Assembly (NCBI GenBank): GCA_964016885.1
Contig: OZ024749.1
Span: 24,676,001-24,740,000 of the forward strand
DNA from: Eledone cirrhosa
Taxonomy: Eukaryota
Reading direction: 5' to 3'
Length of the DNA: 64,000 nt
The position numbers and the translations under genes are program-made. Shown piece after piece: positions 13,822-14,277 of this stretch. Each line of letters opens with the position of its first letter. Positions within the stretch are counted from its first letter, which is position 1. The notes under the pieces are model-generated. The model was not told the origin of the DNA and made no database searches. It saw nothing but the letters and a program-made list of their open reading frames with translations.

Positions 13822-14271
13822 TATTCCATTTATCGTTTTCGGTGTGCCCGGCCGACTGAACTCACTCGATATGCAAATTAGGCTGCCCAGCCGTTAATAT
13901 GCATAAGGAAAGTATATACTTTCAGACGTTCAACCATCTGGCAGGAAGGTATACAATGCCGACGATAACTAATAAGCTTGAAACTAGTACACCGTTCCTG
14001 TGTCAGTGTTGAACAAAAAGGTGACGTGGTTGCCTAAATACTGTACGGCGTAATTCAGGCTGTTTGTTTGTTTACAAACAAACAGACCGAGCATTATAAT
14101 AAATGTTCGGTAAAGAGATACGTGCATATATGTATATGTGTGCATGTATGTATATATATACATACTACTGTACGTATGTATACATATATGTATGTACGTA
14201 TACATACATACTTACTTAAATGTAAGTGCCGTACTAAGAGTTAGAAATGAAATTTCGTTTCATTCTATTCC

Positions 14272-14277
<6 letters not shown>
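13822..14277 (+). mobile_element. Family F retrozyme-like monomer (444-bp period, terminally redundant)
   Basis: TATTCCATTTAT at both ends; a circular permutation of the 422-bp unit at 52581-53002; flanked by (TA)n. Confidence 0.8.
13957..13992 (+). ncRNA. Minimal type I hammerhead, family F (mutated copy)
   Basis: TG-CCGACGA-T-AAC..GCT-T-GAAA-CTAG-TA-CA with palindromic ACTAGT; an intact CTGACGA core is present in the 52.7 kb copy. Confidence 0.6.

Follow-up and report, generated by a model that had tools for sequence, protein, structure and literature searches.

Does a short non-coding repeat that begins and ends with the same bases owe this shape to a circular RNA template? The question is raised by one stretch of the genome of Eledone cirrhosa, 64,000 nucleotides long and here called the window, in which a hammerhead-bearing copy lies at 13822–14277 (plus strand). 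A sequence-only reading of the window had taken this copy for a circularly permuted monomer, and a second one, on the minus strand near 52 kb, for a head-to-tail partial dimer of the same circle, and had proposed a retrozyme-like family that may yield a circRNA. The first copy is one whole unit with terminal redundancy, as that reading held (its first 12 bases are its last 12, period 444). It is a 5′-truncated member of subfamily F1 of what we call family F, made up of one 444-bp unit and the 12-bp overlap, and it stops at B, the distal of two fixed 3′ sites. Its type I hammerhead (13944–14001, plus strand; cut predicted after 13989) carries a core change at 13960 that turns CUGA into CCGA, and at 13968 one of its stem II pairs is broken; CUGA is kept in 27 of its 29 closest relatives among the matches listed. 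An internal palindromic TA/TG tract, predicted to form a long hairpin, fills 14117–14214 (plus strand), its right edge (~14214) marking A, the proximal of the fixed 3′ sites, and is followed between A and B by a 'tail' of ~60 nt (14215–14277, plus strand), which has a predicted hairpin common to a sister family, G. A motif at 13871–13878 (plus strand; unit positions 50–57), which we take to be octamer-like, is kept in family G as well. This motif is common to F and G, yet altered in the youngest F2 lineage. On the left the copy is flanked by a TA/TG tract (13622–13821), a likely target, and on the right by (TA)n (14275–14307). The 12-bp overlap was considered as an LTR or a target duplication, and this was rejected because its length varies freely between copies, from none to several units elsewhere in the family; it is a chance 5′ truncation 12 nt upstream of the fixed 3′ end of a B-ended copy. 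The copy is thus a decayed, ordinary family member, and its value sits in the family as a test system.

The second copy (52543–53150, minus strand) is a partial tandem of ~1.4 units that fades into TA sequence. It begins inside the ribozyme, at unit position ~144, and its repeated portions (53150–52963 and 52728–52543, minus strand) are 93% alike over 188 bp. The period of 422 and the different start point given in the earlier reading stand, but the copy is not the reverse complement of the one at 13822, the two being 80–82% alike and belonging to different subfamilies (F1 and F2). Its single complete catalytic core, with a non-palindromic loop 3, lies in a hammerhead at 52691–52749 (minus strand) with a predicted cut after 52704, where the GUA cleavage triplet had correctly been placed; the counterpart at the first copy is 13989 (plus strand). 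In its first lap the ribozyme is cut off and the GUA changed. A short inverted remnant of unit positions ~287–335 (52423–52470, plus strand) lies beside the decayed 3′ end, and BLAST finds these two copies of family F in the window and no others (E 1e-91). The claim of one hammerhead per unit is true of the family, in which 132 of 151 sampled units have an intact core and the frequent changes sit at tolerated places, but not of the window, with a mutated core at 13822 and a truncated first lap at 52 kb. Neither window copy would alone be able to release a unit-length RNA by two cuts, and short-window folds of the two hammerheads are no better than those of shuffles (z −0.74 and 0.34). Other tandem repeats of the window include a 60-bp repeat in 56 copies at 1379–4745, with minus-strand open frames of which one is Thr/Pro-rich and mucin-like, and short arrays of 33 bp × 3 with an octamer-like core (20774–20872) and of 70 bp × 4 (21929–22224).

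Family F as a whole was followed through the genome. Across the 3.0 Gb searched, a 32-nt ribozyme core has 9,768 exact matches, a 27-nt motif close to the 3′ end has 18,628 and a 25-nt hairpin has 15,065, all of which are lower bounds on the number of units, and the reversed controls of the three motifs gave no exact match; the family has at least 18,000 genomic units. Pairs of ribozyme motifs one unit apart number 2,745. The head-to-tail unit measures 422–446 bp and is non-coding, as had been claimed, the longest ATG frame in circular monomers of two subfamilies being 47–51 aa; the GC content of these monomers is 0.39 and 0.37. Their predicted circular minimum free energies, each compared with 30 dinucleotide shuffles, stand at z −7.4 and −6.4, in part owing to the palindromic TA/TG tract. 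No internal region was seen between family F repeats. The subfamilies form a ladder, each with homogeneous arrays; a recombination breakpoint at the cleavage site between subfamilies was sought by eye in 100 aligned units, and none was found. For structural comparison we took 122 regions of contig C1 chosen by motifs, 25 more chosen by tandem pairs and the 29 best DNA matches, so that, save for those 29, the sample covers the first ~72 Mb of C1, and the motif anchoring favours copies that hold the anchor. The first, motif-chosen set gave 209 mapped arms, of which 10 were left out because of their shortness or because they lay close to the edge of a region, leaving 199.

The hammerhead is the most conserved segment of the unit and is retained where subfamilies change: 3 of its 43 sites vary, as against 19 among the 103 sites upstream of it and 29 among the 117 downstream. 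One stem I pair varies as U-G (86 units), G-U (28) or A-U (28), together 142 of 151. Across 16 sequences (14 from F and two from G), 93% of cells pair and six pairs change on both sides, mostly through the two rows of the one sister family, and none of 500 shuffles reaches the F/G covariation score. Rfam gave no match at 52600–52920 at E values up to 10, and for an intact copy a weak match to Hammerhead_HH9 (17.6 bits, E 0.035, gathering threshold 52); over the whole window it gave 402 matches, with microsatellite miRNA matches swamping those listed. With Rfam weak, it is on core conservation and covariation that we call the motif a hammerhead. Helix I has 6 bp, helix II is short and opens with a U-U mismatch, and helix III consists of two pairs round a palindromic loop, a form said to need a second copy for cutting in the part of PMC4209133 that treats it. 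Family G (2747–3453 of L262, minus strand; 1884–2402 of L238; 2185–2460 of L116) has fully paired hammerhead stems with compensatory changes. Its 466-bp unit is 66–76% alike to F and keeps F's order of octamer, ribozyme, hairpins and tail. Elements of the newt satellite 2 type have an snRNA-like promoter, with an octamer and a proximal element as in host snRNA genes. Two U2 upstream regions examined for a promoter of this kind have no octamer and gave no informative match to F or G; the U2 snRNA genes form a tandem array of period ~2.2 kb (G000:C3:307.35–307.45 Mb). A loose scan of the window for CUGANGA...GAAA found further motifs at 12028, 19142, 20285, 43581 (all plus) and 28397, 62293, 63998 (all minus), some of them recurring in pairs (43581/62293 and 20285/63998), which may mark other repeat families.

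What the copies have in common is how they end. The 3′ ends of the 199 arms fall at A in 83 cases and at B in 95, with six inside the tract and 15 elsewhere, so that 178 of 199 are at one of the two sites; A is the right edge of the internal TA/TG tract and B lies ~60 nt further on (61–62 nt as measured). TA-rich sequence follows 68 of the 83 A ends and 71 of the 95 B ends, as against four of the 21 other ends. The 5′ ends, on the other hand, are scattered across the whole unit (12 bins, p 0.023, the microsatellite bin being highest), and at the cleavage site (positions 165–173) there are four of 199 where 4.0 are expected; a cut linear monomer as the main template is rejected for want of a pile-up there. 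The unit junction is crossed by at least 79 of the 199 arms, and 188 are shorter than two units, two exceed four and the longest has 7.4. Fixed 3′ starts with variable 5′ ends imply that copies start at two points and run back through a head-to-tail template. The permutation points, once tabulated, thus do not bear out the free permutation that had been supposed, the 3′ ends lying at two fixed sites and the 5′ ends being truncations. Nor do two different permutation points show a circle, since any head-to-tail RNA, circular or linear, gives such ends. The main feature, a Penelope-type insertion footprint, had been missed.

A second part of this footprint is the arrangement of arms back to back. 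In 120 regions there are 56 head-to-head pairs; this first set holds 41 with outer ends A and B, three with A and A and none with B and B, together with 12 that have another end, and two of its rows repeat one duplicated insertion. Two added sets gave 7 A+B, 3 B+B and 2 other pairs, and 12 A+B, 1 A+A and 2 other. With the two repeats removed, A+B makes up 58 of 65 pairs overall. Both arms of an insertion stem from one source haplotype: diagnostic sites agree at 632 of 641 between arms and at 419 of 434 between adjacent laps, where random pairs disagree at 46%, and private variants are common to 54 of 289 and 36 of 166 in the comparisons made for a same source of arms and laps, as against 210 of 16,918. 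A nearest-neighbour test found the partner closest in 10 of 37 tandem and two of 17 inverted pairs and is uninformative for identity within a site. At four loci (L068, L147, L231 and L376) both arms stop at one unit position, so that the centre is a perfect palindrome, as if one cDNA had folded back.

The third part is the target. A TA run of at least 8 comes after 112 of the 124 arms that belong to two-armed insertions and after 39 of the 51 single arms, as against 120 of 894 background windows, and on the 5′ side of single arms it is found in 19 of 51, to be set against the same background. Full laps span 420–469 bp in 155 of 163 cases, with four exceeding 470. The flanking (TA)n is best read as the insertion target, and some addition of TA on the 3′ side is possible. 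The earlier proposal that the family spreads its internal microsatellite accordingly holds in one respect, the TA/TG tract being internal to the unit as had been noted, but not in the other, the long flanking (TA)n being by its look mostly target DNA.

These traits are those of Penelope-like elements (PLEs). Passages of PMC8557442 describe PLE insertions as partial tandems, often with an inverted 5′-truncated copy, a tail of 30–40 bp at one end and a bias to (TA)n, and F shows partial tandems, 5′ truncation, an inverted partner arm, a tail on one side and an AT-rich or microsatellite target. A purified anole PLE is described as cutting and extending both strands, with two internal reverse transcription start sites that define the tail; it is predicted to be a dimer, and its insertion in vitro does not need hammerhead cleavage (PMC11167929, in part). 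The window itself holds two broken copies of an element with reverse transcriptase and GIY-YIG frames (48064–50292, plus strand, and 54302–54925, minus strand), for which Pfam on four frames gave one weak RVT_1 match. Their wider extents are 48064–50820 (plus) and 53470–55200 (minus), with hammerhead-like motifs of their own at 50570 (plus) and 53672 (minus), and the second has an inverted terminal repeat upstream. The family is very young, with 36,125 candidates and intact-looking frames of up to 1,217 aa elsewhere in the genome. Of 30 copies, 19 end in a near cluster and 10 in a far one, ~45–60 nt apart and both ahead of TA, and a second autonomous PLE family has 17 near and nine far of 30, ~45 nt apart. 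Set against a Penelope-type mobilisation of F are the exceptions (three pairs that are B+B, four that are A+A, and 21 of the 199 ends, which fall outside both sites), a tail of ~60 nt where the relevant part of PMC8557442 gives 30–40 nt, and the fact that the covariation comes largely from two sequences of one sister family. Because no autonomous partner sharing sequence with F was found among 110 PLE loci or regions or beside 176 F regions, we infer the mobiliser solely from the footprint. In all likelihood family F is a real, abundant and recently active retrozyme family with a clear Penelope-type footprint, and very probably it is a non-autonomous non-LTR retrozyme copied into DNA by a Penelope-like reverse transcriptase-endonuclease.

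It might instead be held that F is itself a piece of a PLE. F as an autonomous PLE was rejected, with no ORF in the unit and none joined upstream in the 176 regions. A solo terminal repeat (pLTR) of an autonomous PLE, its copies being 5′-truncated pieces of a longer linear RNA, would leave the same footprint; terminal repeats of PLEs carry hammerheads in the account that PMC4209133 gives of them, and most PLE insertions are truncated according to a portion of 10.64898/2026.07.22.740005. What lies upstream of unit position 1, however, is the unit's own 3′ end and not an ORF, arms reach 7.4 units, and the 2,745 adjacent hammerhead pairs lie one unit apart. The sequence-only reading had named pieces of a longer linear element as what would speak against it, and a same-strand PLE match within 700 bp upstream of an F arm, where such an ORF would lie, is found in none of the 176 regions; PLE sequence occurs elsewhere within 17 of them. 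Among 110 PLE loci or regions, which come from three groups and are a small part of the more than 36,000 candidates, no F-like terminal repeat was seen, and the F matches in them sit apart from the ORF end, as insertions of their own. A solo pLTR is thus very unlikely, and for the copies of today it is largely refuted; F may have descended from a pLTR since lost.

Nor need the head-to-tail order come from RNA at all, as F could be a satellite spread at the DNA level, by rolling circle or recombination, with the hammerhead a passenger. DNA-level expansion has taken place: two loci (L149 and L376) show exact AB alternation of two diverged units, there are long arrays with patchy variants, and F arrays exceed 20 kb (C1:51.77–51.79 Mb), from which it follows that expansion of this kind also makes multimers. 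Long satellite arrays seeded by F, with higher-order repeats, are seen at G000:C1:51.77–51.79 Mb, 53.35–53.37 Mb and 49.584–49.588 Mb and at L390. As an account of the family, satellite spread is nonetheless highly improbable, given that 188 of 199 arms are shorter than two units and dispersed, that their 3′ ends are fixed, their 5′ ends scattered and their inversions of the A+B kind, that the F footprint is that of autonomous PLEs in the same genome, and that the hammerhead is conserved with compensatory change.

We return then to mobilisation by a Penelope-type protein and to the form of RNA that it would read. Tandem F copies would be transcribed, and their hammerheads, probably acting as pairs, would cut out monomers or oligomers, and ligation would close some of these into circles. 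The protein, probably a dimer, would nick both strands of a (TA)n tract, and reverse transcription would be primed at A from one strand and at B from the other, each cDNA running past one unit until it stopped or until two cDNAs were joined head to head; some insertions would later expand as DNA into satellite arrays. The RNA that is read could be a circle, of one unit or of several, or else a linear multimer left uncut, and circles and linear RNA may both be used. That the template is linear, an uncut multimer made by transcription of tandem arrays already present, with circles, if made, as by-products of the same Penelope-type mobilisation, is a reading that we regard as possible though somewhat doubtful. 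Arrays long enough to be its sources exist, namely those above 20 kb just described, and in vitro a PLE took unprocessed RNA for insertion (PMC11167929, in part). Several observations also favour it over a strict monomer circle: at L152 and L194 adjacent laps come from different subfamilies (of the 49 pairs of adjacent laps, two show differences at four diagnostic sites at least), at L197 and L363 the two arms have, in register, variants in common between their first laps that are absent from later laps, and rare variants at the 27 sites with at least three segments are in all laps at three sites and in some laps only at seven. A strict monomer circle is also at odds with L231, where variants are in six of nine and eight of nine laps.

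For the repeated reading of a single unit there is insertion L361, in which one arm has five laps and the other four, with ends A and B. Eight of these laps have 0–1 differences over ~300 sites, the ninth adjoining the inversion point, and two variants are present in all nine; their joint pattern occurs once elsewhere, at L390, in a separate array of another lineage. A linear template for L361 would need a source array of at least five units fixed for both variants, and the assembly contains none. Four sequencing runs (from one study, their kind unrecorded) that were set against L361 gave short family contigs only, with no bearing on joints or empty sites. A comparable case, L371, has a 24-nt pattern in its own three laps and nowhere else, which a DNA duplication could explain. 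Against a linear multimer there is also the ladder of subfamilies, each with homogeneous arrays, which needs repeated single-unit bottlenecks, and the strong conservation of the hammerhead, shown by the counts of variable sites in it and downstream of it given above. Also set against it is an excess of A>G over T>C among shared variants only, many of which are lineage markers. These changes number nine as against one where shared by laps and 10 as against three where shared by arms, with unshared counts of 31 against 30 and 33 against 32, in a weak test that left out eight expanded or duplicated regions. An overall A>G excess was discarded, as it fell from odds of 1.9 (p 0.0005) per segment to 1.3 (p 0.06) when counted per site. 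G>A also exceeds C>T (p 0.001), so the strand bias is not specific to editing. Counting against the proposed cycle are one of nine Xenopus retrozyme dimers reported as cleaved in vitro in a part of 10.64898/2026.07.22.740005, and the insertion in vitro by an anole PLE for which hammerhead cleavage was dispensable. A circular template for F is plausible, the evidence being mixed, and we give circles as its main template a little less than an even chance. The fuller account, in which one ribozyme-made circle, primed at two sites 60 nt apart by a Penelope-type dimer on both strands of one (TA)n break, is written repeatedly into two arms, at times with A-to-I edits, we put forward tentatively. If this account is true, the genome itself would bear direct witness to the retrozyme life cycle and to the model in which Penelope tandems form on a circular template.

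How does F stand beside known systems? With EN+ PLEs it shares partial tandems, 5′ truncation, an inverted partner arm, a tail at one end, microsatellite or AT-rich targets and a hammerhead in the repeat, as these appear in the relevant parts of PMC8557442, PMC11167929 and PMC4209133. F differs in having no ORF, in that the whole element is the repeat, and in its tail of ~60 nt against 30–40 nt in the sections of PMC8557442 concerned. The hammerhead of F has a helix I of canonical type (6 bp) and a short helix II, unlike the long helix II of the PLE minimal motifs treated in PMC4209133, and the part of PMC8557442 on N-terminal EN+ PLEs presents them as having no canonical hammerheads. Non-autonomous Chlamys PLEs, such as MRC1 of Chlamydomonas, resemble F as non-coding dependants of PLEs with multicopy head-to-tail insertions; in the same portions of that source they generally share 3′ sequence with an autonomous family, and no such partner was found for F (PMC8557442).

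Close to F, too, are the metazoan non-LTR retrozymes of coral, mussel and axolotl. Sections of PMC7229834 and 10.64898/2026.07.22.740005 propose that PLEs mobilise retrozymes, from common hammerheads, co-occurrence and pLTR homology, and mobilisation by PLEs with a circular template is treated as proposed rather than demonstrated in the portions of these and of PMC4209133 that deal with it. F differs from metazoan retrozymes in being known from DNA alone, in the palindromic microsatellite inside its unit and in that the PLE loci checked show no pLTR homology to it. Neither two fixed 3′ ends nor A+B arms nor (TA)n targets are described for a retrozyme in the pertinent parts of PMC7229834 and 10.64898/2026.07.22.740005, and a search for cephalopod or Octopus retrozymes, hammerheads, or PLEs with circular RNA found no published account devoted to family F. 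Being young and without an ORF, and having inserted thousands of times with start sites that are fixed, F offers a minimal 422-nt substrate and a large natural record, on which the mobilising protein, the priming sites, the reason why arms differ and the circular or other nature of the template can be tested. F has in common with the retrozymes described in these two sources, as far as their relevant sections go, a short tandem unit that is non-coding, low in GC and furnished with one type I hammerhead, an occurrence as monomers, dimers and multimers in tens of thousands of copies beside co-existing PLEs, and a strongly self-paired predicted circle (PMC7229834, 10.64898/2026.07.22.740005). With HHR_Amex2 of the axolotl, as set out in a section of PMC7229834, it shares the two-pair helix III and the U-U mismatch at the base of helix II. 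Judged by its sequence, F has every feature of a metazoan non-LTR retrozyme that was tested on DNA, and it is an element of the expected kind.
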